Assembly: GCA_016191875.1 (NCBI GenBank) | Contig: JACPVG010000013.1 | Coordinates: 25,715 to 89,714, forward strand | DNA: 64,000 nt | Reading direction: 5' to 3' | From: Chloroflexota bacterium | GTDB taxonomy: Bacteria > Chloroflexota > Anaerolineae > Anaerolineales > UBA11579 | Shown: piece after piece, positions 2,648 through 45,704 of the stretch | How the letters are laid out: each line of letters begins with the position of its first letter | Position numbering within the stretch: the stretch's first letter is position 1 | The notes under the pieces: model-generated | Seen by the model: the letters and a program-made list of their open reading frames with translations, nothing else | Told to the model about the DNA's origin: nothing | Databases searched by the model: none | Translations under genes and position numbers: made by a program

Positions 2648-2828
2648 GATCTCCCTGTTCGGCATCAGATGCGACCAGCGTCTGACGTTCTTTCTATTAT
2701 AGCGGCGAGGTGGACCTAATCAATAATTTGTAATCAGAAAGTGCCACGGCTAAAGGCGTGATAACCGGAAACTTGTTCAGGGCATATGCACCAGCACGCG
2801 CCAGATTTGGGCGGGGGGACAACTTCCG

Positions 2829-3158: not shown

Positions 3159-3454
3159 AGCGGCACGGCCTCGGCCTCAACGGCTTCGGCGAAGGCCCGG
3201 TCTGCGACGCGGGGTAGGGCAAAGCGGGGCACCACATCCACCCGGACGCCCAGCAGGCGTTCCACCTCGTATTGAAAGCCGCCAACGCTCAATCCGGAGG
3301 CGTTTTCTTCCAGTTCGACCAGGAAGTCGGCATCGCTGGCGGCGGTGCTTTCGCCACGCGCCACCGAGCCGAAGACGTACACCCGCCGGATGCCGTATTT
3401 GGCGGCGATGCGCGCCAGTTCTGCCCTGTGATTCTGAAGTTCATCCAATCGCAT
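3155..3454 (-). CDS. mntA: MntA-type antitoxin (minimal nucleotidyltransferase)
   Basis: Start chosen at ATG 3454 (MRLDELQNHRAEL) with a GGAGG SD. It carries the GSVARGE...DADFLV (GSxxRG / DxD) motifs. The longer track ORF to 3562 adds an implausible Pro/Arg-rich N-terminus. Confidence 0.85.
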   Translation of the reverse strand: MRLDELQNHRAELARIAAKYGIRRVYVFGSVARGESTAASDADFLVELEENASGLSVGGFQYEVERLLGVRVDVVPRFALPRVADRAFAEAVEAEAVPL

Positions 3455-3991
3455 AGCGGCCTCCGCTTGAATTATATACCAGCCAGAGAGCGGCGTCAGG
3501 GGGCGCGGGCCGGGACGCGCTACACCTCGGCCGGGCCGGTGGTGTGGAGGAGGACGCCCCACGGTTCACATCCGTGAGGCCGCGAGCGCAAAGACTTCTG
3601 GCCCCCCCTTGACATTTCCCCTCCCCGCACCCCATCCCGCCCCGCCGGTGGTATCCTTAACCCAGTTTGGGGCCATCCATTGCCTTTATGCTTATGCTCT
3701 GTTGCAAAGACGACCAACTTCAATATTGTCATTCTGAGGGAGCGGTCAGCCTACACTCGGCTTGAAAGAATCCTTATCCGCGACCGAAGAATCTCGCGAA
3801 AAGAGCCCCAATTGCGGCGGTGGGTCGTCGGATAAGAAACACTTTTGTCGAGATTCTTCCATCGGGTTTGCAGGTTGGACTGAGTTTGTCGGTGGTCGCA
3901 CTCTCCTTTGGAATGACAGAATGGATTGTTGACATCCTTGCAACAAAGCATTTTGCTTACGCCTTGCTCAGTTGCAGAGATTCACAATAGG

Positions 3992-4131
3992 CAATACTTG
4001 TCACCCTGAGCAAAGCGAAGGGTCGCGAGTCGGGATCTTTTTCAGGCTTACCGGTCTGAAACAACGCCGCTGAACGCGATCCCTCGCTTGGCCGAGCGCC
4101 GCTTCGCAGCGTCGGCTTGCTCGGGATGACA
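3992..4131. repeat. Inverted pair of a short dispersed palindromic-element word (CTTGTCAYCCYGAGCAAGC...GAAGGGTC type). A third degenerate copy lies at about 3727-3800.
   Basis: cttgtcaccctgagcaaagcgaagggtc at 3992-4019, and the reverse complement of gcttgctcgggatgacaag at 4113-4131. gtcattctgaggg...ccgaagaatctcg lies at 3729-3795. Confidence 0.6.
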
Positions 4132-4246: not shown

Positions 4247-4545
4247 AAAAAATGGTACATGGGCTGAAAAAACGTTACAAAAATGACACACCCAACCCCA
4301 AAATGGTACACAAAAACGCCAGAATGGTACTTAAAAACGCCCTTTTGGTACACTTTCCCGCAGGGGGGAGGGGTGTTTTGTACCATTTCTCCCAGAGGCG
4401 GAATCGGCTTCCCGGAAATGACCAACTTGCACGGAAACTGACCCACCGAATCTACAAAATGGCGCACGAAATCTATAAAAATGGTGCAGAAAATAGCCGC
4501 TTTGGTGCACTTTTCTTTAGGGGGGAGGGGGGTTTTGCACCATCT
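4247..4545. repeat. Diverged tandem duplication. Each unit carries spaced AATGGTRCA words and ends in a TGGTRCA...TGYACCA hairpin with a GGGGGGAGGGG loop.
   Basis: aatggtaca at 4251, 4302 and 4323; ttggtaca 4345-4352, paired with tgtacca 4378-4385 around the loop caggggggagggg. The second unit has aatggcgca 4458, aatggtgca 4480 and ttggtgca 4502-4509, paired with tgcacca 4535-4542 around the loop aggggggagggggg. Confidence 0.75.
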
Positions 4546-31290: not shown

Positions 31291-33390
31291 ATGCTTGCTA
31301 ACTTTGGCTACGGCGCGCTGGTTATCAGCCTGGCCGTTTCGCTGTATGGGATTGGCGCGGCAATCTACGGCGAGAGGAACAAGCAGCCGCGCTGGGTGGA
31401 TAGCGCCCGCAACGCCATGCTGCTCACCTTCCCGCTGCTCACTCTGGCGGCGGCCAGCATCATCATCCTGCTGGTCACCAACCGCTTCGAACTCGATTAC
31501 GTTTATTCGGTTACCAGCCGCAGCATGCCCACCTACCTGCGGGTGACGGCGCTGTGGGGCGGCCAGCCCGGCTCGCTGGTGTTCTGGTCGTGGCTCTTGT
31601 CACTGTTTACTTCGGCGGTCACGCTGCGCGACTGGCGGCGCGATCGCGAGTTCCTGCCGTGGGTGATCGTGGTGGCGCTGGTCACGCTGGCCTTCTTCCT
31701 GGTGCTCATCATCGCCTTCGAGAACCCCTTCCTGCGCTACTGGACGGGGTCGAGCGGCGCGGTGGTAACGGCCATGTTCCAGCCCAGGGGCCTGGAATTG
31801 TTCACGCCCGCGGATGGGCGCGGCTTGAACCCGCTGCTGCGCCACCCGGGCATGATCATCCACCCGCCGCTGTTGTACCTGGGTTTCGTCTCCCTGACCA
31901 TCCCGTTCGCCTTCGCCATCGCGGCGCTCATCACCGGGCGTACCGATGACCGCTGGATCCGATTGACGCGACGCTGGACGCTGTGGGCCTGGCTGTTCCT
32001 TTCGCTGGGGTTGATCCTGGGCGGGCGCTGGGCCTACGACGTGCTGGGTTGGGGCGGCTACTGGGGCTGGGACCCGGTGGAGGTGGCGGCGCTGATGCCG
32101 TGGCTGACGGCCACGCCCTTCCTGCATTCGGTGATGATCCAGGAAAAGCGCAACATGTTCAAACACTGGAACATGCTGCTCATCATCATCACCTACGACC
32201 TGATGATCCTGGGGACCTTCCTGACCCGTTCCGGGGTGCTGTCTTCGGTGCATGCCTTTGCCCAGTCGGCCATCGGGCCGATGTTCTTTGGCTACATCGT
32301 CATCACGCTGGCGGTCTCGCTGGCGCTGCTCTCGCGACGCTGGGATGAGTTGAAAAGCGAAGGCGAACTGACCTCGTGGCTGTCGCGCGAGGCATTGTTC
32401 CTCATCAATAATCTCGTGTTCATTGCCATCCTGGTGGTGTGCCTGTGGGGGGTGTTCTTCCCGATTCTCACGGAGGCGCTGGGCATCGTGGGCCAGGCGT
32501 TCCCGTCGGTGGCGCACATCTTCAACGGCCAGAAGGTAACGGTGGGGCCATTGTTTTACGAGCGCGCCACCGGCCCGTTGTGGGCGGCGCTGCTGCTGTT
32601 GATGGGCATTGCCCCGCTTTCGGCCTGGCGCGCCAGCACCGGCCGCACCCTGGGGCGCGGGATGGTTGCGCCGACCATCGCCTCGGTCGTGGCGCTCATC
32701 GCCGTGGCGGCATTCAGCGAGGTGCGCCAGTGGGCGGCCCTGCTGGCGATCTGGCTGTGCTTCTTCGTGGTCTTCGTGACGCTGTATGAGTTCATCCGGG
32801 CGGCGGCGGCGCGCGCCGCGGCGCACAGCCTGAATTTCATCGTGGCGTTGTGGCAGCTGGCCGGGCGCAACCGGCGGCGCTACGGCGGCTACATCATCCA
32901 CCTGGGGGTGGTGCTCATGGCGGTCGGCATCATTGGCATCGAGATGTTCCAGACCGAGACGCAGGCTTCGCTGAAACTGGGCGAGACGCTGGCGCTCGGC
33001 CGCTACAGCATCCGCTACGACTCGCTGGCTGAGTTCGACACCAACGACAACCGCAACGTGGCGCGGGCGGTGGTAACGGTGTTCAAGGACGGCCGCGAGG
33101 TGGGCGAGCTCTACCCGCGCCGCGATTACTTCTACGAATCCGACCAGCCGATGACCATCCCCGGCGTGCGGGCGTCGCTGGAAGACGACTTCTACGTCCT
33201 GCTGGTGGACTGGCAGCCGATCTCGACCCAGAACGCGACCTTCAAGGTCTACCACAACCCGCTGGTCAACTGGCTGTGGCTGGGGTCGCTGGTGTTCATC
33301 GCCGGCACGTTTGTGGCCGCCTGGCCGGAAAAAGACGCCCAGCCGCAGCCCGAACGCAGCCGGGCGGCGCGGGCCGCGGCGCGCGCCTGA
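31291..33390 (+). CDS. ccmF: Cytochrome c heme lyase subunit CcmF
   Basis: 699 aa, polytopic, with the WWD motif GWGGYWGWDPVE. Confidence 0.95.
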   Translation: MLANFGYGALVISLAVSLYGIGAAIYGERNKQPRWVDSARNAMLLTFPLLTLAAASIIILLVTNRFELDYVYSVTSRSMPTYLRVTALWGGQPGSLVFWSWLLSLFTSAVTLRDWRRDREFLPWVIVVALVTLAFFLVLIIAFENPFLRYWTGSSGAVVTAMFQPRGLELFTPADGRGLNPLLRHPGMIIHPPLLYLGFVSLTIPFAFAIAALITGRTDDRWIRLTRRWTLWAWLFLSLGLILGGRWAYDVLGWGGYWGWDPVEVAALMPWLTATPFLHSVMIQEKRNMFKHWNMLLIIITYDLMILGTFLTRSGVLSSVHAFAQSAIGPMFFGYIVITLAVSLALLSRRWDELKSEGELTSWLSREALFLINNLVFIAILVVCLWGVFFPILTEALGIVGQAFPSVAHIFNGQKVTVGPLFYERATGPLWAALLLLMGIAPLSAWRASTGRTLGRGMVAPTIASVVALIAVAAFSEVRQWAALLAIWLCFFVVFVTLYEFIRAAAARAAAHSLNFIVALWQLAGRNRRRYGGYIIHLGVVLMAVGIIGIEMFQTETQASLKLGETLALGRYSIRYDSLAEFDTNDNRNVARAVVTVFKDGREVGELYPRRDYFYESDQPMTIPGVRASLEDDFYVLLVDWQPISTQNATFKVYHNPLVNWLWLGSLVFIAGTFVAAWPEKDAQPQPERSRAARAAARA

Positions 33391-33398
33391 GGAACCCC

Positions 33399-33917
33399 AT
33401 GAAGAGACTTCCCGTTTTTCTCCTTGCCCTGGCCGCGCTGGGGGCGCTGCTGGCGGCCGGACCGGCTCGGGCGCAGGGCGAAACTCCGCCCGCGCCCGCC
33501 GCCACGCCTTCGGACGATGCGGTCAACGCCATCGCCAAGAACCTGTACTGCCCGGTGTGCGAGAATGTGCCGCTGGACGTGTGCCCGACGCTGGCCTGCC
33601 AGCGCTGGCGCGAGCAGATCCGCGAGAAACTGGCGGAGGGTTGGAGCGAGCAGGAGATCCTCGACTATTTTGTGCTGCAATATGGCGACCGGGTGCTGGC
33701 CGCCCCGCCCCGGCGCGGCTTCAACTGGCTCATTTACCTGGCGCCGCCGGCGCTGATCGCCCTGGGTGCGTGGACGCTCTACCGGTTGATGGGCCGCATG
33801 CGCCTGGCGGCGCAGGCTGCCCAGACGGCCCGTATGGACGCCCGTCCCCAACACGTTGACGACGACACTCTCGCCCGGCTGGAGGACGAACTCAAACGCC
33901 GGGATCAAGGTGAATGA
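33399..33917 (+). CDS. ccmH: Cytochrome c maturation protein CcmH/CycL family
   Basis: Signal peptide, then LYCPVCENVPLDVC (CxxC), followed by a TM. Confidence 0.85.
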   Translation: MKRLPVFLLALAALGALLAAGPARAQGETPPAPAATPSDDAVNAIAKNLYCPVCENVPLDVCPTLACQRWREQIREKLAEGWSEQEILDYFVLQYGDRVLAAPPRRGFNWLIYLAPPALIALGAWTLYRLMGRMRLAAQAAQTARMDARPQHVDDDTLARLEDELKRRDQGE

Positions 33918-34474
33918 ACATGACGGAAATGACCGAAACGACCCCGCGCAAAGCCGGTGGTTGGGGGCGCATCCTGGCCTGGGCGCTGGTGCTCGGCCTG
34001 CTGACCGTGGTAGCCATTCAGTTGAGCAAGAGCATGCAGGGCAGCGTGGGCGCAGGCCAGAAGGCCCCGGAGTTCACGCTGACCCTGTTTGGGGGCGGCG
34101 AGATTGGCCCGGCCGAGATGGCTGGCAAAGTGGTGGTGGTGAACTTCTGGGCATCGTGGTGCAAGCCGTGCGAGGAAGAGGCCGAGGAACTCCAGGATGC
34201 CTGGGAGTACTACGAACCGCGCGGCGACGTCCTTTTCCTGGGCGTGGATTATGTGGATACTGAGACCGACGCGCTGAAGTACCTGGAGAAGTGGGGCATC
34301 ACGTACCCCAACGGACCGGACCTGGGCACGCGAATCTCGCAAGCCTTCCGCATCACCGGTGTGCCGGAGACCTACATCATCGACCGCCAGGGCACCCTGG
34401 CCTACATCAAGATCGGGCCGTTCACCACGCTGGATGAGATCCTGGCGGCGGTGGAACGCGCCCTGGCCGAGTAG
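33914..34474 (+). CDS. TlpA/ResA/CcmG-like membrane-anchored thiol:disulfide oxidoreductase
   Basis: An N-terminal TM, VVNFWASWCKPCEEE (WCxxC), and an ATGA overlap with ccmH. Confidence 0.85.
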   Translation: MNMTEMTETTPRKAGGWGRILAWALVLGLLTVVAIQLSKSMQGSVGAGQKAPEFTLTLFGGGEIGPAEMAGKVVVVNFWASWCKPCEEEAEELQDAWEYYEPRGDVLFLGVDYVDTETDALKYLEKWGITYPNGPDLGTRISQAFRITGVPETYIIDRQGTLAYIKIGPFTTLDEILAAVERALAE

Positions 34475-34496
34475 CGGCCTGACCATTGGAGCCTGC

Positions 34497-35018
34497 ATGG
34501 ATATTGGTTCGATACTGCTAATTCTGGCGCTGGCCCTGCTGGTGGCAGCCTTTGTGGCCCGCCCGCTGCTGGCCGGCCATTCCAGCGTTGTAAGCGAGCG
34601 CGAGCACCGCATTTCGGCCCTGCTGGCCGAGCGCGATCGCCTGCTGGACGCGCTTTTGGAACTGGATTTCGACAACCAGATGGGCAAGGTGCCGGAAGAT
34701 ATCTACCCGGCCCAACGCGCCAGCCTGATGGGGCGCGCGGCGGAGGTGCTCAAGGAGCTGGATGCGCTCGAGCCCCAGCCCGCTCCCGCCGGCGACGCCG
34801 TGGAAGCCGCCATCGCCGCCAAACGGGCAACGAGCGGCGACCCGCTGGAAACGATGATCGCCCAGCGCAAGGCGGCGATGCAAAAGGATCGCACCAGCGG
34901 CGCGGCGCGCAAGGCCAGCCAACCCGCAAAGACCGGGGCCAAATTCTGCCACGTATGCGGCAAGGCCGTCCAGCCGGGCGATAGGTTCTGCCCAAACTGC
35001 GGCGCGGCGTTGGGGTGA
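34497..35018 (+). CDS. Membrane protein with a CcmI N-terminal-like helix and a C-terminal zinc ribbon
   Basis: An N-terminal TM, then ISALLAERDRLLDALLELDFDNQMGKVPEDIYPAQRASL (the pattern seen after the TM of CcmI). The C-terminus is FCHVCGKAVQPGDRFCPNCG. No TPR region is present. Confidence 0.55.
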   Translation: MDIGSILLILALALLVAAFVARPLLAGHSSVVSEREHRISALLAERDRLLDALLELDFDNQMGKVPEDIYPAQRASLMGRAAEVLKELDALEPQPAPAGDAVEAAIAAKRATSGDPLETMIAQRKAAMQKDRTSGAARKASQPAKTGAKFCHVCGKAVQPGDRFCPNCGAALG

Positions 35019-35025
35019 GGCGATA

Positions 35026-37014
35026 ATGAGACGCTCAATCTTCAAGACGTGTATTGCGATGGCTTCTGCGTTCAAGGCTCGGGTTCTCGAATCCATAGGT
35101 ACGGACTTGAAACCCACCCCTGCACCATCGAACGGCCGGCCGGCTTTCGTACTTGCAATTTTCCTTGCCCTTGCGTTGAGCGGCTGCAGTCTTTCGCTGG
35201 CGCAGGACATACTGCCCCCACCCGGCTACACCGCTCCCACCTACGAAGACCTGCCAACCGTCATCGAAGGCGCGTTCCCGCTGAGCGCCCCGAACGCCGC
35301 GGCGGGCAAAGCCATCTTCGCCGAGCGTTGCGCGCCCTGCCACGGAGCCACCGGCCTGGGCGACGGGCCGCAGGCCGGGCAACTGCCGGTGCAGGTTCCA
35401 GCCATCGGTACGCTCGACCTGGCGGCGCAGAACAGCCCGGCGGCCTGGTTTGCCATTGTCACGCTCGGCAACCTCGATTCGTTCATGCCGCCCTTTCAGA
35501 ATGCCCTTTCTGACCGGGAACGCTGGGACGTGCTGGCCTACGTCTATTCGTTCAGCAGTCAGCCGTCGATGATTGAACTGGGGGCCGGGGTATACCAGGC
35601 TGAGTGCGCGGCCTGTCATGGCGAAAACGGACAGGGGGACGGCCCCGACTCTCTGGGGGCGACGGACTTCACCAACCAGGAGACGATGGTGGCGCTTTCC
35701 GACCTGGATGTGCTGATTGCCACCGCGCAGGGAATCGGCACCATGCCGGGCTATGGCGACCGGCTGGAGAGCATCGAACTGGAAGCGGTGACGGCCTTTG
35801 TGCGGGCGTTCACCTTCCCGCCGTATGCGGAAGCCGCCCTGCCCCTGGCCGAGGATGTCCAGCCCACGCCCGCGATTGCCCGCCCGGAAGTGGAGGCCCC
35901 GCCCTCCGGAGAGCAGGAGGCCCCGCAGTTTTCGGATGAACCGCTGATGGGCACTTTCAGCGGCGTCGTGACCAATGGCAGCGGCGGCGACCTGCCGGCC
36001 GGCCTGACCGTCACCCTGTACGGCTACGACCACACCACCGAAGCCCTGACCGCAGAGACCCAGACCGGGCCGGGCGGCCGATTCCGCTTCGAGGATGTCG
36101 AACTCGTCCCTGAGCGGCTGTTCTTCGCCACGGTGGATTTTGAGGACCAGACCTATGGTTCGGACTTCGTTTTCGCTGACTTCGGCACTGAATATGAACT
36201 GGCCGTGACGGTCTACGAGACCACCAGCGACGCCTCAGGTCTGGCCGTAACGCGTATGCACGTGTTCCTCGAGTTCCCCGAGCCGGACAAGATGCAGGTG
36301 GTGGAACTCATTATTCTGACCAACAACGGCGACAAGGCGGTTGTGCCCGCCAGCCTGGGCGAACCGGCGGTGCGCTACTCGCTGCCGGAGGGGGCCGAAA
36401 ACCTCATCTTCCAGGAAGGCACGTTGGGCGAACGCTTTGTGGCTACCGCCGACGGCTTCGGCGACACGCAGGCGATTCTGCCGGGGACGAGCGACTACCA
36501 GTTGCTGTTCGCCTATACGCTGCCCTACACCCGCAAACTGGAATTCGTTCAACCCCTGGCGATGGATACCCAGGCGGTAATCGTGTTCGTGCCGGATGAC
36601 TCAGTGAAGGTGAGCGGGGAAGGATTGCAGGACGCCGGCATGCAGGACATCGGCGGGCTGGCCTACCAGATGTTCCAGGGCGGCGGGATACCTGCCGGGG
36701 GCGCGCTGACGCTGAACGTCTCCGGGCGACACCCGCTGGCGGGCGGCGGGTTCACGCTCTCCAGCAACGCCGCCAGCCTGGCGCTGGGCCTGGCCGGGCT
36801 GGCGCTGGCCGGGCTGGCTGTGTTCCTCTGGCTGCGGCAGGCCCGCCAGGAAGACGAAGACGACGATGAGACCGCCGATGACCTGCTCGAAGCCATTGTG
36901 GCATTGGACCAGGACTACGAGGCCGGCGAGCTGGATGAGAACGCCTACGAAGCCGAACGCGCCGAGTTGAAGGCCCGCCTGGCGGAACTGCTCAGGGAGA
37001 CTTCGGCGGACTGA
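35026..37014 (+). CDS. Diheme c-type cytochrome lipoprotein fused to a large extracytoplasmic domain, a C-terminal TM and a CcmI-like helix
   Basis: Lipobox LALSGC; two CxxCH sites (CAPCH, CAACH); a CarboxypepD_reg-like segment (GVVTNGSGGDLPAGLTVTLYG); and a C-terminal TM followed by LDQDYEAGELDENAYEAERAELKARL. The start is uncertain (35026 or 35059). Confidence 0.75.
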   Translation: MRRSIFKTCIAMASAFKARVLESIGTDLKPTPAPSNGRPAFVLAIFLALALSGCSLSLAQDILPPPGYTAPTYEDLPTVIEGAFPLSAPNAAAGKAIFAERCAPCHGATGLGDGPQAGQLPVQVPAIGTLDLAAQNSPAAWFAIVTLGNLDSFMPPFQNALSDRERWDVLAYVYSFSSQPSMIELGAGVYQAECAACHGENGQGDGPDSLGATDFTNQETMVALSDLDVLIATAQGIGTMPGYGDRLESIELEAVTAFVRAFTFPPYAEAALPLAEDVQPTPAIARPEVEAPPSGEQEAPQFSDEPLMGTFSGVVTNGSGGDLPAGLTVTLYGYDHTTEALTAETQTGPGGRFRFEDVELVPERLFFATVDFEDQTYGSDFVFADFGTEYELAVTVYETTSDASGLAVTRMHVFLEFPEPDKMQVVELIILTNNGDKAVVPASLGEPAVRYSLPEGAENLIFQEGTLGERFVATADGFGDTQAILPGTSDYQLLFAYTLPYTRKLEFVQPLAMDTQAVIVFVPDDSVKVSGEGLQDAGMQDIGGLAYQMFQGGGIPAGGALTLNVSGRHPLAGGGFTLSSNAASLALGLAGLALAGLAVFLWLRQARQEDEDDDETADDLLEAIVALDQDYEAGELDENAYEAERAELKARLAELLRETSAD

Positions 37015-37745
37015 TGATCAGCGCCCGCAATCTGGTCAAACGCTTTGGCCTGAAGAGCGTACTGCGCGGCCTGGATTTCGAAGTGGCCGAGGGCGAGTTC
37101 GTGGGGTTGCTGGGGCCGAACGGCGCCGGCAAAACCACCTTCCTGCGCATCCTGGCCTCGCTGGCGCGGCCCAGCCTGGGCCGGGTGGAGGTGGCCGGGT
37201 TCAGCCTGCCGGAGCAGGCCGCCCAGGTGCGGCGACGCCTGGGGGTGCTTTCGCACCAGCCGCTGCTCTATCCGGACCTGACCGGCGAGGAGAACCTGAC
37301 GTTCTTCGGCCGTCTTTACAATGTGCAAAACCTGCCGGAGCGCATCAGGAACGTCCTGGCGCTGGTCGGCCTGGAAGGCCGCGGGCGCGACCTGGTGCGC
37401 ACCTACTCGCGCGGCATGCAGCAGCGCCTGGCCATCGGCCGGGCGGTCATCCACGACCCGGACATCCTTCTTCTGGACGAGCCCTACACCGGCCTGGACC
37501 AGGACGCCTCAGCCATGTTAGATGACGTGCTGCGCAAGGTAACCGCCGAAGGGCGGACGGTGGTGATGACCTCGCACGACCTGGTGCGGGCGCAGGACCT
37601 GTGTTCGCGCTTCGATGTGCTGACGCGCGGGCGCATCCTCGCCAGCGCCAGCCGACAGGATGTGCCGCCGGACGGATTGCAGGCTTTCTACCGGCGGTCG
37701 GTCAGCAGCCTGGAGCCGGGAAGGGCGGGGGCACATGACGGTTAA
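37014..37745 (+). CDS. ccmA: Heme exporter ATP-binding protein CcmA
   Basis: GPNGAGKTT, YSRGMQQRLAIGRA and ILLLDEPYTGLD, next to ccmB and ccmC. Confidence 0.85.
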   Translation: MISARNLVKRFGLKSVLRGLDFEVAEGEFVGLLGPNGAGKTTFLRILASLARPSLGRVEVAGFSLPEQAAQVRRRLGVLSHQPLLYPDLTGEENLTFFGRLYNVQNLPERIRNVLALVGLEGRGRDLVRTYSRGMQQRLAIGRAVIHDPDILLLDEPYTGLDQDASAMLDDVLRKVTAEGRTVVMTSHDLVRAQDLCSRFDVLTRGRILASASRQDVPPDGLQAFYRRSVSSLEPGRAGAHDG

Positions 37746-38445
37746 GTCGGCGGCGAAACGCCCCGCCCCGCCGGTCTCTTTCCTCAGTTCCATGTGGGCG
37801 GTGGTGTGGAAAGATCTGGCGGCCGAATTGCGCAGCCGCGAGCTGATCTCGGCGATGCTGGTGTTCTCCCTGCTGGTGGTGTTGATCTTCAATTTTTCGC
37901 TGGAGTTGAACGCCCGCGAACGCCAGGAAGTGACCGCCGGCGTGTTGTGGGTGACCTTCGTTTTCGCCGGGACGCTGGGGCTGAACCGCTCGATGGCCAT
38001 CGAGAAGGACGGCAACTGCCTGGATGGACTGTTGCTGGCGCCGGTTGACCGGGCGGCGATCTATTTCGGCAAGGTCATTGGCAACCTGATCTTCATGCTG
38101 CTGGTCATCCTGATCGTGCTGCCGATCTACAGCATCCTTTACAACACCAACCTGTTCGTACCCGGCCTGCTGGTTACCATCCTGCTGGGCGCGATAGGTT
38201 ACGTGGTCTCCGGAACGCTGCTGGCCGCCATGTCGGTACAGACGCGCACGCGCGACATCCTGCTGCCGATCCTGCATCTGCCGGTGGTGCTGCCGGTGGT
38301 CATCTCGGCGGTGCGAGCCAGCACATACTTCCTGCAGGGCCAGCCGATGGACCTGATCTGGGGTTCGCTGAACCTGCTGATTGGCTATAATGTGATCTTT
38401 ACCGCCGCGGCCTACATGCTGTTCGATTACGTAGTACAGGAATGA
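37735..38445 (+). CDS. ccmB: Heme exporter membrane protein CcmB
   Basis: Start at ATG 37735, overlapping the ccmA end. It has 6 TM and the CcmB-like segment SMAIEKDGNCLDGLLLAPV. Confidence 0.85.
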   Translation: MTVKSAAKRPAPPVSFLSSMWAVVWKDLAAELRSRELISAMLVFSLLVVLIFNFSLELNARERQEVTAGVLWVTFVFAGTLGLNRSMAIEKDGNCLDGLLLAPVDRAAIYFGKVIGNLIFMLLVILIVLPIYSILYNTNLFVPGLLVTILLGAIGYVVSGTLLAAMSVQTRTRDILLPILHLPVVLPVVISAVRASTYFLQGQPMDLIWGSLNLLIGYNVIFTAAAYMLFDYVVQE

Positions 38446-38473
38446 AAACCAAGATCCATTCGAGGAGTTCACA

Positions 38474-39172
38474 ATGAACGCAAAACCCAAGGCATTGATG
38501 GCGCTGGACGTAGCCTCCTGGGCGCTGCTGGCTGTTTCGGTCTATCTGGTGCTGGTGTATGCGCCGATGGAAGCCGTGATGGGCAACGTGCAGCGCGTGT
38601 TCTACTACCACGTGGCGGCCGGCTGGGTGGGCATGATCGGCTTCCTGTTCGCGGTGTTCGCTGGAATCATGTACCTTGCCAGAGGCGACCGCAAATGGGA
38701 TGTGATGGGCCTGGCGGGCGTGGAGGTCGGCCTGATCTTTTCGCTCATCAACATCGTGACCGGCAGCATCTGGGCGCGGCCGATCTGGAACACCTGGTGG
38801 ACGTGGGACCCGCGCCTGGTGACCGCCACCATCATGGAACTGGTGTACGTGGCCTACCTGATGCTGCGGCAGGGTATTGACGACCCGGACCGGCGCGCCC
38901 GTTTCGGGGCCATCTACGCCATCGTCGGCTTCCTGAGCGTGCCGCTGTCGTTCTTCTCCATCCGCATCTGGCGCACCATCCACCCGGTGGTCATCGGCAG
39001 CGGAGATGCCGGGGCGCAGGGCGGTTTTGACATGACGGCCGGCATGCAGGTGGCCTTCTTCTTCTGCCTGTTCACATTCACCGTCATTGCCGTTGACCTG
39101 TTGTGGCACCGCGTGCGCCTGGGTTTCCTGGCGGATAAGGTCGAACAACTCAAATTAAAGTTCTCATCCTAA
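38474..39172 (+). CDS. ccmC: Heme exporter protein CcmC
   Basis: WWD motif IWARPIWNTWWTWDPRLV. Confidence 0.9.
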   Translation: MNAKPKALMALDVASWALLAVSVYLVLVYAPMEAVMGNVQRVFYYHVAAGWVGMIGFLFAVFAGIMYLARGDRKWDVMGLAGVEVGLIFSLINIVTGSIWARPIWNTWWTWDPRLVTATIMELVYVAYLMLRQGIDDPDRRARFGAIYAIVGFLSVPLSFFSIRIWRTIHPVVIGSGDAGAQGGFDMTAGMQVAFFFCLFTFTVIAVDLLWHRVRLGFLADKVEQLKLKFSS

Positions 39173-39182
39173 GGAGGCGACG

Positions 39183-39344
39183 ATGCATTTCCTGCAACAA
39201 GGCCCGGCTGAAACCACCGATTACCTCATCCTGGGGCTGGCGTTCGTGTTCATCCCGATGGCGCTGCACGTCTGGTCGCTGGTGAGCCGCCGCAAGCGGC
39301 TGGAAAGCGACCTGGCGATGATGGAGGAGATGAAAGAGAAATAG
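39183..39344 (+). CDS. ccmD: CcmD-like small single-TM protein (53 aa; below the ORF-track length cut-off)
   Basis: AAGGAGG SD 5 nt upstream. Sequence: MHFLQQGPAETTDYLILGLAFVFIPMALHVWSLVSRRKRLESDLAMMEEMKEK. Its position directly after ccmC matches ccmD. Confidence 0.6.
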   Translation: MHFLQQGPAETTDYLILGLAFVFIPMALHVWSLVSRRKRLESDLAMMEEMKEK

Positions 39345-39452: not shown

Positions 39453-40733
39453 ATGGTAAATCAAAACTCGCCAGACGTTGAACCGGACGAGTCTTCGCCC
39501 TACTGGAGCCAATCCACCAAATTGGTGGTGGGCCTCACCCTGGTGGCGGTCGCGGCGGCGCTGGTGGCCCGATTCAAGAACATCGTCGGGCCGCTGCTGA
39601 TGGCGATCATCCTTTCCTATCTGCTTCACCCGCTGGTCAAGTGGGTGACAGACACAACCCGGCTGAAGTGGCGGGGGGCGGTCAACCTCATTTACCTGTT
39701 GTTCCTGATTCTCCTCATAGCGCTGCTCACGCTGGGCGGCGTGGCGCTGGTGCAGCAATTGCAGACCCTGGTGGGGGTGGTGACGACCTTCTTCACCGAA
39801 CTGCCGGAATTGGCCGCTTCGCTGGCGCAGGAAGACTTCGTGGTCGTCGTTCCGCTGTTCAATCAGGAAGTCGACCTTGGGCCGTACATCGACCAGTTGA
39901 ACATCGATTTCCTGAGCCTGAGCCAGGAAATCCTAAATCTGATCCAGCCCGCCCTCGGGCGCGCCGGCAGCCTGGTGGCGACAATCGCCGGGTCGGCCTT
40001 CAGCACACTGGGGTGGATGTTCTTCATCCTGTTGATCTCGTATTTCACGCTGGCCGATTCGGGCGGGGTGCGCGAGATGCTGCTGACCCTGAACCTGCCC
40101 GGCCACCAGCAGGATGCCCGCCGCCTGGGGCGCGAACTGGGGCGCATCTGGAACGCCTTCCTGCGCGGGCAGTTGACGCTGGTGCTCCTGACGGCGGTGG
40201 TCTATTATTTCGTCATGGTGGCGCTGGGGGTGCGCAACGCCCTGGCCCTGGCGCTGGTGGCGGCGCTGGCAAAATTCCTGCCCTATATCGGCCAGTGGCT
40301 CACCAGCGGCACCATCGCGGTATTGACCTTCTTCCAGACTGAGAACTATTTCAGGATGGAGCCGCTGGCCTATACACTGATGGTGATGTTGATCGTGCTG
40401 GGGTTCGACCAGGTGGTGGATAACCTGATCGCGCCGCGCATCTTCGGGCAGGCGCTGGGCATTCACCCGGCGGCGCTGCTGGTGACGGTGCTGATCATGG
40501 CCAGCCTGATGGGGTTCATCGGCGTGCTGCTGGCGGCCCCGGCGCTGGCCAGCGTGCAGTTGTTCTCCCGCTACGCGCTGCGCAAGATGGTGGACCTGGA
40601 ACCCTGGCCTGACCCGGAGGAGACGTTGGGGCCAATGCAAATCCCGTTCCGCGACCAATCTCAAAGAACACTGGCGCGGCTGAAAGCCTGGTGGGCGCGG
40701 GCGAGGACTCGAAAAAAGGACAATGACTCATGA
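39453..40733 (+). CDS. AI-2E family transporter (PerM/UPF0118)
   Basis: 426 aa, about 8 TM, with the characteristic PYIG...DNLI.PRI.G... segment (LPYIGQW, DNLIAPRIFGQALGIHP). Confidence 0.85.
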   Translation: MVNQNSPDVEPDESSPYWSQSTKLVVGLTLVAVAAALVARFKNIVGPLLMAIILSYLLHPLVKWVTDTTRLKWRGAVNLIYLLFLILLIALLTLGGVALVQQLQTLVGVVTTFFTELPELAASLAQEDFVVVVPLFNQEVDLGPYIDQLNIDFLSLSQEILNLIQPALGRAGSLVATIAGSAFSTLGWMFFILLISYFTLADSGGVREMLLTLNLPGHQQDARRLGRELGRIWNAFLRGQLTLVLLTAVVYYFVMVALGVRNALALALVAALAKFLPYIGQWLTSGTIAVLTFFQTENYFRMEPLAYTLMVMLIVLGFDQVVDNLIAPRIFGQALGIHPAALLVTVLIMASLMGFIGVLLAAPALASVQLFSRYALRKMVDLEPWPDPEETLGPMQIPFRDQSQRTLARLKAWWARARTRKKDNDS

Positions 40734-40918
40734 CCCAGGACCCGAACGACCTCAAGACCAAGACACTGGCCGAAACCGACAATTTCATCGTCTGGCAGGC
40801 GGACGAGCCGGACGGCGAAACGACCTTTCACCTGGAGTTGAGCAGCGTGACGGTGCATTTCTTCCAGGAAGAGTGGGACGAATTTCTGCAACTGGTGGGC
40901 GCGTTGAAGGGCAAATAA
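40730..40918 (+). CDS. Hypothetical small acidic protein
   Basis: 62 aa with an ATGA overlap onto the AI-2E gene stop. No motif was recognised. Confidence 0.5.
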   Translation: MTQDPNDLKTKTLAETDNFIVWQADEPDGETTFHLELSSVTVHFFQEEWDEFLQLVGALKGK

Positions 40919-40992
40919 CCGTTACGAAACGGTCATTGATTTCGCACTCAAACCGGCTTGCCGCGCCGCGCCCGGCGTGATACACTGATTCC

Positions 40993-42600
40993 ATGGCAGT
41001 TTCCGTACTGGTCATCACCCCCAGCCCCGGTTTTGGGGAGCTCATCTCCCAGATCCTGCAGGAGACGGGCGATTACGCCTGCGTACTGGCGAACAGCGGC
41101 AAGGATGGCCTGGATGGCGCCCGGTCTAACTCTCCGAGGTTGTGCATCCTGGATGGCGACCTGAGCGACACGCCGCTGGAAAAACTTGCCGCCGGGCTGC
41201 GCGCCAGCCGGCCGGGACTGTTGCTGGTGGTCATCCCCCCGGAAGGCGAAGACGCCCCCCCGGATTTCACCCATTTGCAGGCCGATGGCCTGCTGGCCAA
41301 ACCTTTCTATCTGCCTGACCTGATCACGACCGTGGAGCGGGTGCTGGCTGGCGGCAAGCCGGACAGGGGCGCGCCCACCCCGGAAGCGCCGCCCGCGGCC
41401 ACGCCTGTGCGCGCGGCTGAACCGGCCCAGGCCGCCGCCGAGGATGCTCCCGAGTGGCTGCGGGATGTGAACCTGGCGGCCCAACACCTGGCGCGCCTCT
41501 CGCTCGAATCGGCCTCGCAGGCTTCGTTGATCGCCAGGGGCGACCAGGTGTGGGCCTATGCGGGCGGGCTCGACCAGGGCGCCGTGAACGAACTGGCGCG
41601 CACGCTGGGGCAGTATTGGTCTGGCGGGGATGGCAGCGACCTGGCGCGCTTTGTGCGCCTGGATGCCACCGGCTCGGATTATATGCTGTATGCCACCGAC
41701 CTGGGCGGCGGTTTCGTCCTGGCGATGGTCTTCGATACCGAAACGCCGTTCAGCAAGATACGCACCCAGGCCGGCAGCCTGGCCCAACGGCTGGCCAGCC
41801 CGCCGGATTCTTTTTCCGAAGCCCCGATGGAGCGCGGCGAACTGGATGACGAGGGCGAGATGGTCCCGCTTCCGCCGCTGTTCGAGGATGTGCCGCCGCC
41901 CATTCCCGGCGACTGGATGCCGGAGCAGATCACCGCCGCGGCGCATCGGCCGTTCCTGGAGGAGTTGTTCCAGGATGCGCCGGCCGCCGAAACCTTCAGC
42001 CAGGAGAGCAGCCCGGCCATACGCCGCCCGTATGATGTGGCGGTGGAAGAAGACCTTGACGCAACGACGCCCTCGCGCATGCCGGATTACGCCGCCGAAA
42101 CCATTCCGAGCGAAGCCGAGACCGACGAGGACCTGTTCGCCGCCACAGTGCCAAGCCGCTCTAGCAAGCCGCGCGGCGACAGGGCGCGGCTGGAGCCCAT
42201 CTCGCCGGCGATGGTCAACCTGACCTATTCGTGTGTGCTCATCCCGCGCCTGCCGGAGCATTACCTGACAGGCGACCTGGCCGGTCGGGTGGCCGAATGG
42301 GTGACCCAGTTGTGCCTGGCCTTTGGCTGGCGTCTGGAGCAGCTCTCGGTGCGGCCGGAGGTGTTGCAGTGGATGGTGAACGTGCCGCCGCAGACCTCGC
42401 CGGGCTACCTGATGCGCATCCTGCGCCAGCACACCTCGCGGCGGTTGTTCGTGGAATTTCCGCTCTTCGTGGAAAGCAACCCCAGCGGCGATTTCTGGGC
42501 GCCGGGCTACCTGATCATGAGCGGCCCGCAGGCGCCGCCGCCGCAGCTGGTGAAAGATTTCATCAAGGAAACCCGCGTGCGGCAGGGGATCAGCAAGTAG
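40993..42600 (+). CDS. Multidomain protein: atypical receiver (REC)-like domain, Roadblock/LC7-like middle domain, and a C-terminal IS200/IS605 TnpA (Y1 HUH transposase)-like domain lacking catalytic residues
   Basis: REC-like region: VLVITPSPG...CILDGDL...LLAKPFYLPDL (the acidic DD pair is absent; Asp and Lys-Pro are kept). The C-terminus (about 42211-42597) reads YSCVLIPRLPEHYLTG...LSVRPEVLQWMVNVPPQTSPGYLMRILRQHTSRRLF...FWAPGYLIMSG...LVKDFIKETR. This aligns by eye to IS608 TnpA (YSCKYHIVW...DHIHIL...GRSSRILRQEF...LWTNSCFISTVG...VKQYIENQ), with HUH replaced by LQW and the catalytic Tyr replaced by Phe. Confidence 0.7.
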   Translation: MAVSVLVITPSPGFGELISQILQETGDYACVLANSGKDGLDGARSNSPRLCILDGDLSDTPLEKLAAGLRASRPGLLLVVIPPEGEDAPPDFTHLQADGLLAKPFYLPDLITTVERVLAGGKPDRGAPTPEAPPAATPVRAAEPAQAAAEDAPEWLRDVNLAAQHLARLSLESASQASLIARGDQVWAYAGGLDQGAVNELARTLGQYWSGGDGSDLARFVRLDATGSDYMLYATDLGGGFVLAMVFDTETPFSKIRTQAGSLAQRLASPPDSFSEAPMERGELDDEGEMVPLPPLFEDVPPPIPGDWMPEQITAAAHRPFLEELFQDAPAAETFSQESSPAIRRPYDVAVEEDLDATTPSRMPDYAAETIPSEAETDEDLFAATVPSRSSKPRGDRARLEPISPAMVNLTYSCVLIPRLPEHYLTGDLAGRVAEWVTQLCLAFGWRLEQLSVRPEVLQWMVNVPPQTSPGYLMRILRQHTSRRLFVEFPLFVESNPSGDFWAPGYLIMSGPQAPPPQLVKDFIKETRVRQGISK

Positions 42601-42632
42601 AACTTGCGGCAGCGGCATTGACCTTAACGAAG

Positions 42633-42657
42633 AACGCCCCTGAATGGGGCGTTTTTG
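42633..42657 (+). terminator. Intrinsic terminator
   Basis: aacgcccc 42633-42640 / ggggcgtt 42646-42653, then TTTGATT. Confidence 0.7.
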
Positions 42658-42770
42658 ATTCGCGTGTCCGCGTGCGGAGAAATAGTGCGGTCCTGAACGG
42701 GTCATAGGCCACGGAAGAGACGTGGCACATGCCCCTTTACCGGAATAAGGATGGGGCAAAGAATCGAACC

Positions 42771-45581
42771 ATGACGCGAGCCAACCTCCAACCCCTTCGC
42801 AGTATTCTGCTCTTATCGCTGATTCTGAGTTCCTGTGTGCCTGTCAAAGAAGAAGCGCGGACCCCCCTCCCTCCGGCCGCCTCGCCGACGGGGGAAACCC
42901 CGTCGCCCACGGCTGGCGTTTCTCCTTCGCCGACCGTGCCTGCCCAGGTATATCTAAGCGACCTCGCTCCCGTTCAGGCCCATACCGGCCTGGGGAGCCT
43001 GGGCCGGGGGGAATATCCGGAAGAGTCGGGGCGGAGCGGCGAGATCACCGCTCACGTGCGCAAGTTCCCGCATGGGTTGTTTGCGCATGCCCCCTCGCTT
43101 GTCACCTACGACCTCGGCGGTCGTTACGCAGGGCTGGATTTTTCCATCATGATGCAACAAGACGTGAATTGCGGAGACGGGGTGATCTTTGCGGTCTTTG
43201 TGGATGATATGCTGGCTTTTGTGAGCGAACCGGTTCATGCGCTGTCGCAACCAAAGGAATTTTCCCTGGATGTCAGCGGAGCGCAATGGCTGACGCTGGT
43301 CACTTCGGAGATCTCGAACACGGACTGCGACTGGTCCATTTGGGGAGACCCCGTCCTTTCAGCAGCAGCGGGAGAAGTAGCCGGAATTACGCCGACGCCC
43401 AACGCAGACCTGCCATGCCCCTCAGGGGACAGCCCGAACAGCTACCTGTTCCTGGATTGCAGTGACATCCACCGGATTCGCGCACAGATCGCAGCAGAGC
43501 AGGGCGACCTACGCGACCTGTGGCTGCACCTCAGGTCAACCGTATTCAATACCCTGACCGCATTCCCGACGGACTATGACCCGCAAAACAGTGGAGCGGA
43601 CGTCATCTGGTGGGGGGCGGGCAATTATGTGCTGCGCGATGTGGCGTTGGTCTACCTGGTCACGGGGGACGGCATGGCGGGCGAAGGCCTGGCGAAATTC
43701 CTGAGGCTGGTTCGCGAGAACGTCCCCGGCGGGGTGATGATGACGCATCCGGCGCACGGCGAGGTGCTCGTGCAGTCCATCGTGTTCGGGTACGTCGTCG
43801 CACGCCAACACGGCCTGATGACCGATGAGGAGATCGCGGACTATGATCGGTTCTTCATGCGCCAGGCGGAGTACTATGAAAACTGGGCCATGGAGAACGG
43901 GAACTTCGTTTCGGTTGACAGCGGGGTGAACCGCAACACCATCGTCGGCGCGAACATCTCGGCGGGCACCATCGCGCTGGCCTTTCCGAATGAGCCCTCC
44001 ATGCAGGCGCTGTTGGAGCGGGTGCGCCCGCGCCTCGAATGGCAGATCAGCGAGTGGTGGGAGGTGGACGGGGGCTGGGGGGAGAATACGGAGTGGTATG
44101 GTTACCGCGTGATGGAGGGCCTGCTTCTTTTAGCCGAAAGCCTGCGGAAGGCGAGCGGCGGCGACATGTTCACGCAGGCCTATAACGGGCGAACGCTTGG
44201 CCTTATCTGCGGGTACTTCTTGAACAGCATGACACCGGAGGGCGATGTCATCGCCCTGAACGACAGTGGCTACGGGCAGGTGGATCCCGGGGTATTCCTG
44301 CTCTGCGCGGCCCGGACGCGCAACACAGCCCTGCTGTTTGCGCATCTACGCTACCTGGAAGGCAGGTTCAGTGCTTTCGAGCGGGACAATTCTCGCGATG
44401 TGACTTCCTTTGAAACGATTGCCTGGGCCGGTCTGAGCGACGAGACACCGACCGAGCCGGGATTTCTATCCCTCGAAATGACGGGGACGGGGTTGAACGT
44501 CTTCCGCAGCGGGTGGGACGAAAAGGCCCAATTCCTGGCCGTCCAATACACCAGTTCAAGGATTCACAACGAGGACTCGTTTGCAGATGTGTACCTGTAC
44601 GACCGCGGGCCGTGGATTGTGGGGAACGGATACTTCTTTCCCGGCCAGGATTACCAGGCCGGGCATCCCACGGACCAGCACTCCACACTGGGATTGGATT
44701 ATCGGAACCAGGGCACCCCGGGCGGCACTTCACTTGCCTTTGCCGACCTGGGGAATACGGGAATCACCGCGGTCACGCATTTGAGCTACCCCGGACTGCT
44801 GCATACCCGCACTATCCTCTGGATTAAGCCCTGGCACCAATGGCTGGTGGTGGACGAGGCCGAGCTGTTGAACTCCGGCCAGCATAGCCTGCAACTGCGC
44901 TGGTACGTGCGCGGCGATGTCGATTCGCGCCAGGACAACGCCTGGGTTTTCAGTCGCGCAGCAAACCTCGATCGGTTGCACGTCACGTTGTTACCCGGAT
45001 TGGAGGCAACCTACACGAAGATCGAAAGGCAATATCCGTATATTGAGTGGATTGTGGATGCCGTTGGGGTCCTGATGGACCTGGAATATCCAGGGAAGCC
45101 AATTCGACTGGTTTCGAGCCTGACCAGCGTGGCCGGCGACGGCGATGGTCCGGCGGTCACCCGCCTTGACGAGGACGGCGGGACGCGCATTACCGGCGTG
45201 CGCGGGGATGAGAACTGGGAATGGCTGTTCCACCAGACGGGCGCGGCGTCGTCGAACGTGGGAGGCTACGAGTTCGAGGGGCTGGCGGCCTGCGCGAACT
45301 CCCGCAGCGGGACGCTGAATGGATACTGCCTGATGGATGGGACGACGCTATCCAGCGCGGGGACGCTGTGGGTTCTGTCGGACCTGCCTGTTTACCTGGA
45401 GGCGGACTTCGCTGCCCAGCTGGTCACGCTCCGGGCGCTTGAGCCGGTCACAGTGACTTTCATCTGGAACCAGCCGGTGCAGGGGATCCGCCTGGATGGT
45501 GAGGCAATCCAGTTCGACCAGGATGCAGAATGGACCACGGTCTCCGTTCCGGCCGGGCAGCATGTGCTGACCATCGAGTGA
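42771..45581 (+). CDS. Lipoprotein with an N-terminal NPCBM-like carbohydrate-binding module and a heparinase II/III-like (polysaccharide lyase-like) region
   Basis: Start chosen at ATG 42771 (MTRANLQPLRSILLLSLILSSC lipobox). NPCBM-like segment: YLSDLAPVQAHTGLGSLGRG...HGLFAHAPSLVTYDL...CDWSIWGDPVL. The remainder resembles heparinase II/III family proteins (a weaker call). Confidence 0.6.
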   Translation: MTRANLQPLRSILLLSLILSSCVPVKEEARTPLPPAASPTGETPSPTAGVSPSPTVPAQVYLSDLAPVQAHTGLGSLGRGEYPEESGRSGEITAHVRKFPHGLFAHAPSLVTYDLGGRYAGLDFSIMMQQDVNCGDGVIFAVFVDDMLAFVSEPVHALSQPKEFSLDVSGAQWLTLVTSEISNTDCDWSIWGDPVLSAAAGEVAGITPTPNADLPCPSGDSPNSYLFLDCSDIHRIRAQIAAEQGDLRDLWLHLRSTVFNTLTAFPTDYDPQNSGADVIWWGAGNYVLRDVALVYLVTGDGMAGEGLAKFLRLVRENVPGGVMMTHPAHGEVLVQSIVFGYVVARQHGLMTDEEIADYDRFFMRQAEYYENWAMENGNFVSVDSGVNRNTIVGANISAGTIALAFPNEPSMQALLERVRPRLEWQISEWWEVDGGWGENTEWYGYRVMEGLLLLAESLRKASGGDMFTQAYNGRTLGLICGYFLNSMTPEGDVIALNDSGYGQVDPGVFLLCAARTRNTALLFAHLRYLEGRFSAFERDNSRDVTSFETIAWAGLSDETPTEPGFLSLEMTGTGLNVFRSGWDEKAQFLAVQYTSSRIHNEDSFADVYLYDRGPWIVGNGYFFPGQDYQAGHPTDQHSTLGLDYRNQGTPGGTSLAFADLGNTGITAVTHLSYPGLLHTRTILWIKPWHQWLVVDEAELLNSGQHSLQLRWYVRGDVDSRQDNAWVFSRAANLDRLHVTLLPGLEATYTKIERQYPYIEWIVDAVGVLMDLEYPGKPIRLVSSLTSVAGDGDGPAVTRLDEDGGTRITGVRGDENWEWLFHQTGAASSNVGGYEFEGLAACANSRSGTLNGYCLMDGTTLSSAGTLWVLSDLPVYLEADFAAQLVTLRALEPVTVTFIWNQPVQGIRLDGEAIQFDQDAEWTTVSVPAGQHVLTIE

Positions 45582-45586
45582 CAAAC

Positions 45587-45618
45587 AAAAAACCGGATGG
45601 CTGGCGCGTCCGGTTTTG
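45587..45618. terminator. Bidirectional terminator between the lipoprotein gene and tRNA-Asp
   Basis: aaaaccgga 45589-45597 / tccggtttt 45609-45617. Confidence 0.65.
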
Positions 45619-45625
45619 GTCTTTC

Positions 45626-45704
45626 TGGCGGTCCCGACGGGATTTGAACCCGCGATCTCCGCCTTGACAGGGCGGCATGTTAAGCCAAGCTACACCACGG
45701 GACC
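45626..45704 (-). tRNA. tRNA-Asp (anticodon GTC), CCA encoded
   Basis: The reverse complement folds as GGTCCCG-TG-GTGT-AGCTTGGCTTA-ACAT-G-CCGCC-CTGTCAA-GGCGG-AGATC-GCGGG-TTCAAAT-CCCGT-CGGGACC-G-CCA. Confidence 0.9.

Follow-up and report, generated by a model that had tools for sequence, protein, structure and literature searches.

Why should a bacterial protein that opens like a response regulator end like a transposase? The question is raised by a 535-amino-acid (aa) open reading frame (ORF) in a 64,000-nucleotide (nt) stretch of DNA, hereafter the window, from a Chloroflexota bacterium (UBA11579; assembly GCA_016191875.1, contig JACPVG010000013.1, positions 25,715-89,714 forward). An earlier reading of this DNA, the original prediction, had described the ORF as a CheY-like domain, a Roadblock-like domain and an IS200-type transposase domain, the last of them catalytically dead and domesticated by its host. 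Here, we found the ORF intact at window positions 40993..42600 on the plus strand, and all three domain assignments were upheld by profile searches and by Foldseek comparison of AlphaFold2 models. The model of the whole protein, built on 102 homologs, consists of three confident domains (predicted local distance difference test, pLDDT, >90; aa 1-120, ~150-270 and 405-535) with disordered linkers between them (aa 121-150 and ~271-404). Together with the ORF, profile and homology evidence, this indicates that a receiver, a Roadblock and a dead IS200-type transposase domain are joined in a single intact gene.

The C-terminal domain (aa 405-535; 42205..42597, plus strand) has the Y1 HUH fold of the IS200/IS605 TnpA transposases. 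The Pfam profile Y1_Tnp (PF01797) matched aa 408-526 over its positions 3-120 of 121 (E=3e-11), scoring 43.9 bits in the whole protein and 48.1 bits for the isolated domain, against a gathering cut-off of 23; NCBIfam transpos_IS200, with a cut-off of 55, gave 51.9 and 55.4 bits, respectively. A phmmer search matched the solved TnpA structures 2ec2, 2f4f and 2xo6 (E 6e-8 to 7e-6), and in a Foldseek search of the PDB the AlphaFold2 model found the ISDra2, Sulfolobus and IS608 TnpA structures at the top (2xma, 2ec2, 2vhg; E~2e-9, target template-modelling (TM) score 0.70-0.77). These matches establish the proposed homology to IS200/IS608 TnpA and, with TnpA ranked first by structure, speak against an unrelated fold.

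The residues that make TnpA an enzyme are gone. In a residue-level alignment, the HUH motif (H-I-H of 2ec2 and 2f4f) falls opposite V457-L458-Q459 (42361-42369), the catalytic Tyr (KKYIEE; Y132 of ISDra2, carried by 2xo6 as the mutant Y132F) falls opposite F523 (codon 42559-42561), and the third metal ligand of the IS200 type, a Gln at Tyr+4, corresponds to T527. The original prediction was thus exact for the Phe codon and right that the histidines had been replaced, but its placement of the latter, LQWMV at 42364-42378, was off by one residue. Alignment to active TnpA therefore confirms the loss of both motifs and does not show the intact HUH and Tyr of an ordinary transposase.

The same holds when the catalytic positions are scored in 261 C-termini of the family. 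The first former His (aa 457) is Tyr in 219 sequences, His in 25 and Phe in 11, the second (aa 459) is Gln in 210, His in 19 and Leu in 16, the former Tyr (aa 523) is Phe in 199 and Tyr in 60, and Tyr+4 (aa 527) is Thr in 228, Ile in 16, Ser in eight and Gln in none. The change from Tyr to Phe is not universal, 23% of the relatives having Tyr at 523, but none of these has HUH, and the seven sequences with an intact HuH each have Phe at the Tyr position. HuH and Tyr together, and hence the complete set of HuH, Tyr and Gln, occur in none of the 261 sequences. Because Phe and Tyr alternate, and because HuH never co-occurs with Tyr, position 523 seems to call for an aromatic residue of either kind and not for a nucleophile, and the pattern of residues points to an enzyme that is dead across the whole family.

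Most of the non-catalytic signature of TnpA is kept, judging from the alignment and from conservation in the family (Y412, P418-R419, L425-T426-G427, P455-(D/E)456, V462-N463, P465-P466, Y472-L473, W502 and Y506), and the basic residues R419, H423, R447, R454, R475, R478, H480, R484, R528 and R530 are invariant or nearly so. The domain thus shares fold, whole-domain homology and these signature residues with IS200/IS605 TnpA, the nearest type being IS200, with a C-terminal catalytic helix. It differs in that HUH, Tyr and the Tyr+4 Gln never occur together, in being fused behind two other domains, and in belonging to a vertically inherited, single-copy gene at a fixed locus without subterminal hairpins or tnpB. 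It is a Y1_Tnp member by sequence and fold, yet it lacks what defines that family functionally, namely HUH, Tyr/Gln and a mobile context.

The architecture is widespread. A homology search gave 1,807 matches, of which the best 120 were nearly all full-length, 43-83% identical and derived from many sequencing projects. Relatives are annotated as 'IS200/IS605 family transposase' by NCBI and as 'response regulator / RayT' by JGI, the RayT label being a profile match and not a functional one. An exhaustive phmmer search of 1.84 billion representatives with the C-terminal domain yielded 1,018 matches (791 at E<=1e-10, 381 at E<=1e-30), and the family comprises about 790 clusters at 50% identity. 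The Y1-like domain lay at the extreme C-terminus in all of the top 150 phmmer matches. Three of the five shortest matches that were checked begin mid-sequence and are evidently contig-end fragments, and in the longest relatives, which reach 841 aa, the three domains are the same and the linker is expanded. When one genome was scanned for each GTDB species, 499 loci were obtained, and all locus-level scores below rest on the best 80 of these, from 79 assemblies; the 80 are full-length (query residues 1-535) and labelled Anaerolineae, Anaerolineales or Chloroflexota, save two probable mis-binnings. Mean pairwise identity is 0.69 in the Y1-like domain, 0.66 in the Roadblock domain, 0.42 in the receiver and 0.14-0.29 in the linkers; on these values, purifying selection is strongest on the dead domain.

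Nothing in its surroundings marks the gene as mobile. The statement that no tnpB, insertion sequence (IS) ends or repetitive extragenic palindromic (REP) arrays lie nearby agrees with a window-wide repeat and gene search, which found no tnpB, IS ends or REP-like repeat families in the 64 kb; the only repeat matches were chance ones in GC-rich coding DNA, with no hairpin family among them. Across 62 loci, the pairwise identity of the gene and that of polA, its usual downstream neighbour, are tightly correlated (Pearson r=0.92, Mantel p~0.001), a co-divergence that follows the pattern of vertical inheritance. We conclude that this is a resident, single-copy chromosomal gene and not a mobile element. 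One metagenome-assembled genome (JASFRG01; loci L077 and L081) has two copies, each followed by polA, which are more likely to reflect strain heterogeneity or bin contamination than true paralogs. The claim of a domesticated, catalytically dead Y1 fold is well founded in view of the in-frame fusion in more than 100 homologs, the conservation of this domain above all others, its single copy, its co-divergence with polA and the lack of an IS or REP context.

What, then, do the other two domains contribute? The N-terminal one (aa 1-120; 40993..41352, plus strand) has a receiver fold without the acidic pocket. Foldseek matched it to Spo0F and MtrA (TM 0.85-0.87, root-mean-square deviation (rmsd) 1.6-2.1 Å), and Pfam Response_reg (PF00072) scored 20.4 bits on aa 5-114, under its curated cut-off of 30.2. 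It had been predicted to lack the DD pair and to retain the acceptor Asp and the Lys-Pro, and indeed T9-P10 (41017-41022) replace the pair, D54 (41152-41154) stands at the acceptor position and K103-P104 (41299-41304) are kept. Among 114 aligned members of the family, T9 is found in 106, P10 in 94, K103 in 110 and P104 in all, none has Asp or Glu at either position of the acidic pair, and the acceptor is Asp (62) or Glu (50) about equally often. The Thr/Ser position of receivers is not conserved (Ile, Pro or Pro, aa 81-83), and the beta1-alpha1 loop carries a family-specific TPxxGFGEL motif. We call the domain a pseudo-receiver because the Mg2+/phosphoryl pocket is missing across the family, and these residues make classical two-component phosphotransfer unlikely. 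Pseudo- or atypical receivers, such as FrzS, the N-domain of KaiA, HP1043 and the plant pseudo-response regulators, have a CheY fold without a working Mg2+/phosphoryl pocket and act by protein-protein contacts. The domain described here is like them in this respect, but differs in its acceptor, which is still Asp (Asp or Glu in the family), in the TPxxGFGEL loop and in its unprecedented partner domains.

The middle domain (aa 151-270; 41443..41802, plus strand) is predicted to adopt a Roadblock/LC7, MglB-like fold (alpha-beta-beta-alpha-beta-beta-beta-alpha). A separate AlphaFold2 model of it (pLDDT 87.9, predicted TM score 0.81) was matched by Foldseek to MglB, MP1/p14, LAMTOR and Streptomyces Roadblock / 3kye (E 1e-6 to 1e-4, TM 0.6-0.75), and the best PDB matches of the family profile were MglB chains, at a marginal E=0.004. 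NCBIfam MglB matched aa 225-286 faintly (E=0.059), and Pfam, Robl_LC7 included, matched nothing in the middle domain of 19 members. The suspected resemblance is thus one of fold, without sequence-level support from Pfam, and it is by its modelled fold only that the domain belongs to the Roadblock family. From MglB and other Roadblock/LC7 proteins, whose fold it shares, it differs in the missing Robl_LC7 match, in its internal position in a larger protein and in its genomic setting, no MglA-like small GTPase gene being present in the sampled neighbourhoods. A Rag/Gtr-like unit formed by receiver and Roadblock was considered and rejected; Foldseek matches to Gtr1-Gtr2, SEAC-EGOC and a dual-sensor kinase span ~300-340 columns but are weak (TM 0.28-0.36, rmsd 17-19 Å).

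The first linker (aa 121-150; 41353..41442, plus strand) has a pLDDT below 50 and a mean pairwise identity of 14%. The second (aa 271-404; 41803..42204, plus strand) is disordered (pLDDT ~40-60), Pro/Glu-rich and strongly acidic (net charge -21), and its combination with a receiver is reminiscent of RomR as described in the literature. It contains two conserved short motifs on the plus strand, PLPPLFEDVPPPIPGDWMPE (aa 292-311; 41866-41925) and FLEELF (aa 321-326; 41953-41970), with the family forms DVPPPIPxDW and FLxELF. Long-linker relatives (650-841 aa; e.g. locus L091, 7001-9526) have six tandem copies of an amphipathic (D/E)(D/E)I(S/A)A(L/M)FA element with Pro/Ala-rich spacers, to which FLEELF is the single related element in the window protein. 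Both were considered as candidate beta-clamp-binding motifs, but they are without the leading Gln of the consensus.

The genomic neighbourhood offers a clue to the process served. In 72 of 73 loci, namely those of the best 80 with at least 600 nt of downstream sequence, polA follows immediately on the same strand, after a median gap of 116 nt (range 6-404). All six of the other contigs sampled by protein index have the gene, then DNA polymerase I, then a ~775-aa protein consisting entirely of tetratricopeptide repeats (TPR), on the same strand. In a divergent long-linker member, polA begins 4 nt past the stop codon of the gene and is itself overlapped by 4 nt by the TPR gene. Short spacers (<60 nt) make up 27 of 75 gene-to-polA gaps and almost never contain a terminator. 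As there is a second class of longer spacers, the trio is tightly packed as an operon in certain lineages, whereas in others it is the adjacency that is conserved.

Taking these observations together, we give an even chance to a reading in which the C-terminal domain, domesticated and no longer able to cut, serves to bind nucleic acid in a regulator or scaffold that works independently of phosphorylation and is linked to replication or repair. Anaerolineae would have captured an IS200-type Y1 transposase and retained it, after the chemistry of cutting was lost, as the effector module at the C-terminus of a protein with three domains. Roadblock and TnpA folds are dimeric in characterised relatives, and both domains may dimerise this protein. 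The TnpA-like domain would bind nucleic acid without cleaving it, the likeliest ligands being single-stranded, hairpin or fork-like DNA, as with active TnpA. Pseudo-receiver and Roadblock domains would gate this binding by protein-protein contacts and not by phosphotransfer, and partners may be docked, or the DNA-binding surface masked, by the long acidic linker and the short motifs conserved in it. The process served would be DNA replication or repair with Pol I and possibly the TPR protein. We base this assignment on gene order, on the published properties of active TnpA and on a precedent for inactivated HUH domains at replication origins. TnpA of IS608, whose ligands include single-stranded DNA hairpins and fork-like DNA, is found at stalled forks and has a weak interaction with DnaN (PMC5027513), and in Papovaviricetes it is inactivated HUH domains that recognise the origin (PMC13595969). 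A more specific version, which we regard as doubtful, is that the dead transposase, dedicated to single-stranded or hairpin DNA at the lagging strand, acts as a sensor or adaptor within a three-gene replication or repair module with Pol I and a TPR scaffold.

The origin-binding domains of papovavirus replication proteins also belong to the HUH superfamily, have also lost catalysis and act in nucleic-acid recognition during replication (PMC13595969). They differ, however, in representing the Rep-type branch of HUH and not the Y1 TnpA type, in being viral, in being fused to a superfamily 3 helicase and in that their DNA binding has been demonstrated, whereas here we infer it.

Several observations weigh against the reading proposed above. 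Of the 48 long spacers (>=60 nt), 35 contain a terminator-like hairpin and 30 a TATAAT-type box; gene and polA are thus in many cases adjacent without being co-transcribed, and their order could have been inherited. The polA/TPR synteny was scored on the best 80 of the 499 loci only. The window itself contains neither a polA nor a TPR homolog along its 64 kb, and an 83%-identical relative (locus L089) is also without polA downstream, the window being a rare exception that has lost the link. The net charge of the Y1-like domain is only +3, and nucleic-acid binding is suggested by ancestry and conserved basic residues only. Finally, when k-mers were scanned in the 160-260 nt upstream of the gene and in the spacers between gene and polA, no conserved operator-like or hairpin motif emerged beyond promoters and terminators. 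What the scans recovered was the gene's own -35 and -10, the promoter of a divergent metallo-beta-lactamase (MBL)-fold hydrolase gene in one clade, and terminator hairpins plus a TATAAT box of polA; a TTTCGTAA/TTACGAAA box was found in just 11 of 77 loci.

Two alternatives need to be weighed. The protein might be an atypical transcription factor of the response-regulator type without a role at the fork, its dead HUH domain being a sequence-specific output over a regulon that may include itself or polA; the adjacency to polA would then be regulatory or merely inherited gene order. Such a role would suit the succession of domains, receiver first and effector last as in classical response regulators, as well as the ability of inactivated HUH domains to bind DNA sequence-specifically (PMC13595969). 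The gene's own strongly conserved promoter is also in line with it, and the TATAAT box that many polA genes have just past the gene is a possible regulator site. We nevertheless consider it unlikely. The receiver has no phosphorylation pocket, a Roadblock domain and an acidic linker of 130 to 440 residues are foreign to known DNA-binding response regulators, and no conserved operator-like or hairpin motif accompanies the -35/-10 boxes and terminators in the scanned flanks.

The other alternative dispenses with nucleic acid altogether. Here, the TnpA-like domain would be a dimerisation or protein-binding module of a scaffold, with Roadblock and pseudo-receiver acting in a small-GTPase-like or polarity pathway reminiscent of MglB and RomR. 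The Roadblock fold does match MglB, a GTPase-activating protein, the receiver with its Pro-rich acidic linker recalls RomR, and the conserved TPR neighbour is itself a scaffold. The modest net charge of the Y1-like domain and the tolerance of either Tyr or Phe at the former catalytic position, as for a packing residue, fit as well. Against this stand the absence of an MglA-like GTPase gene from the sampled neighbourhoods and the identity of the other conserved neighbour, a DNA polymerase. Furthermore, the Y1-like domain has some ten Arg and His residues that vary little or not at all, and the near-complete upkeep of the non-catalytic TnpA signature would not be needed for dimerisation alone. 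We give this alternative a low probability.

It is very improbable that the protein is still an active transposase or nuclease with non-canonical residues, be it part of an unusual mobile element or a RAYT-like enzyme. The score above the Pfam Y1_Tnp cut-off and the NCBI name 'IS200/IS605 family transposase' for its relatives would suit an enzyme, and a Tyr is present at the first former His in most relatives (V457 in the window) and at 523 in 23%. Against these, HuH and Tyr are never combined and the Gln ligand is never present in the 261 sequences, and a single-copy gene that co-diverges with polA and keeps its genomic position across the family, without IS ends, tnpB or REP arrays, is not what a mobile element looks like. 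That an assembly or frameshift artefact has joined separate genes can be dismissed as next to impossible, given that a second, independent public assembly (locus L001) holds the identical ORF with the same neighbours, that the order of domains is shared by over 100 full-length homologs obtained in many projects and that 80 loci cover residues 1-535.

A further close parallel is that of the RAYTs (TnpA-REP), which are described as domesticated prokaryotic transposases (PMC8266576; PMC6006769). Both are relatives of Y1 transposases kept by the host as single-copy chromosomal genes, but RAYTs still have their HUH and Tyr, with flanking arrays of REPs or bacterial interspersed mosaic elements, whereas here the catalytic set is gone and the 64 kb contain no REP-like repeats. 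The original prediction knew of no description of this architecture, and we likewise found none in the full-text literature searched, which leaves out most subscription journals, so that this absence is no proof. Proteins of unusual length were explicitly excluded, as fusions or errors, from the main survey of the TnpA-Y1 superfamily (PMC6006769).

How the gene is expressed can be read in part from its flanks. Conservation across loci reveals a sigma-70-type promoter (40958..40986, plus strand) with a -35 TTGCCG (40958-40963), a 17-nt spacer containing TG (40978-40979) and a -10 TACACT (40981-40986) that ends 6 nt ahead of the ATG (40993). A generic hexamer scan missed it, as each hexamer matches at only 4/6 positions (8/12 in total), and the promoter was traced by its phylogenetic conservation. 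The extended -10 form TTG-N17-TGnTAnA[C/A]T ends 5-10 nt ahead of the start codon in 74 of 79 loci, against a background for the -10 pattern of 0.6% per 49-nt window. A conserved promoter this close to the ATG implies transcription independent of upstream genes and a leaderless or near-leaderless mRNA; we infer the transcription start site from the sequence, and the mRNA is probably leaderless across Anaerolineae. In the window genome the gene ends in an intrinsic-terminator-like hairpin, AAGAACGCCCC-UGAAU-GGGGCGUUUUU (42630..42656, plus strand), identified from sequence and predicted fold.

Upstream in the window lie an AI-2E transporter gene (PF01594, E=7e-42) and a 62-aa ORF (40730-40918, plus strand) that overlaps the transporter's stop by ATGA. 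Both had been noted as the context of the gene and both are present, but the ATGA couples the small ORF to the transporter and not to the gene, which has its own promoter. The pair precedes the gene in ~14 of the 80 loci, all of closer relatives, and is thus a clade-specific neighbour only. The 62-aa ORF was seen upstream in ~16 of the 80, usually with the transporter. Versions in four relatives show 56-72% identity and the invariant core EPDGETT.HL...VTVHF..EEW.EF. The ORF had no match in Pfam, NCBIfam or PDB, and is a real, uncharacterised small protein. In ~30 more distant loci (a subset of L027-L088), the upstream neighbour, ~200 nt from the gene, is a divergently transcribed gene for an MBL-fold hydrolase (HxHxDH). 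The intergenic region shared by gene and hydrolase is conserved, with TATTGATAGCACAA and TCAAGTTG boxes resembling a hydrolase gene promoter.

Downstream, synteny breaks right after the gene, where 42601-45704 of the window contain the terminator, a 950-aa NPCBM-domain protein and a tRNA-Asp, followed by RelA/SpoT; L089 has yet another gene in this place, lipoprotein- or solute-binding-like. The tRNA-Asp (GTC; 45626-45704, minus strand) lies between the NPCBM gene and RelA/SpoT, and since the mechanically called RelA/SpoT ORF reads through it, its start at 45616 is overcalled. A cytochrome c maturation cluster lies farther upstream of the gene (31291-39344: CcmF, a 662-aa multi-haem cytochrome c, CcmA, CcmB, CcmC and a 53-aa ORF), in the same order as in relative L008. 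At the far end of the window, positions 1-4000 have a GC content of 0.55, compared with ~0.65 elsewhere, and just beyond this boundary two 64-nt copies, 78% identical (4323-4386 and 4480-4543), have inverted ends AATGGT(A/G)C...G(T/C)ACCAT.

To our knowledge, domesticated transposases are common in eukaryotes and rare in prokaryotes. RAYTs, which have been called the first prokaryotic case, are still enzymes; here the chemistry has been lost, yet no other part of this protein, which hundreds of Anaerolineae species have kept, is as conserved as the domain. This makes it a clean case of exaptation in which the transposase fold itself has been reused. On a practical matter, the labels 'transposase' and 'RayT' inflate counts of mobile elements in Chloroflexota and hide a conserved, housekeeping-linked gene, whose fixed place beside polA and a TPR gene points to a testable function in replication or repair in a poorly studied phylum. 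To what is recorded for receiver proteins, the family also adds a type of effector and the pairing of a receiver with a Roadblock domain. Should a lagging-strand role as sensor or adaptor be borne out, this would be the first case in a cell of an inactivated Y1 HUH domain recruited for core DNA metabolism, and receiver-type proteins would gain a new kind of effector domain.

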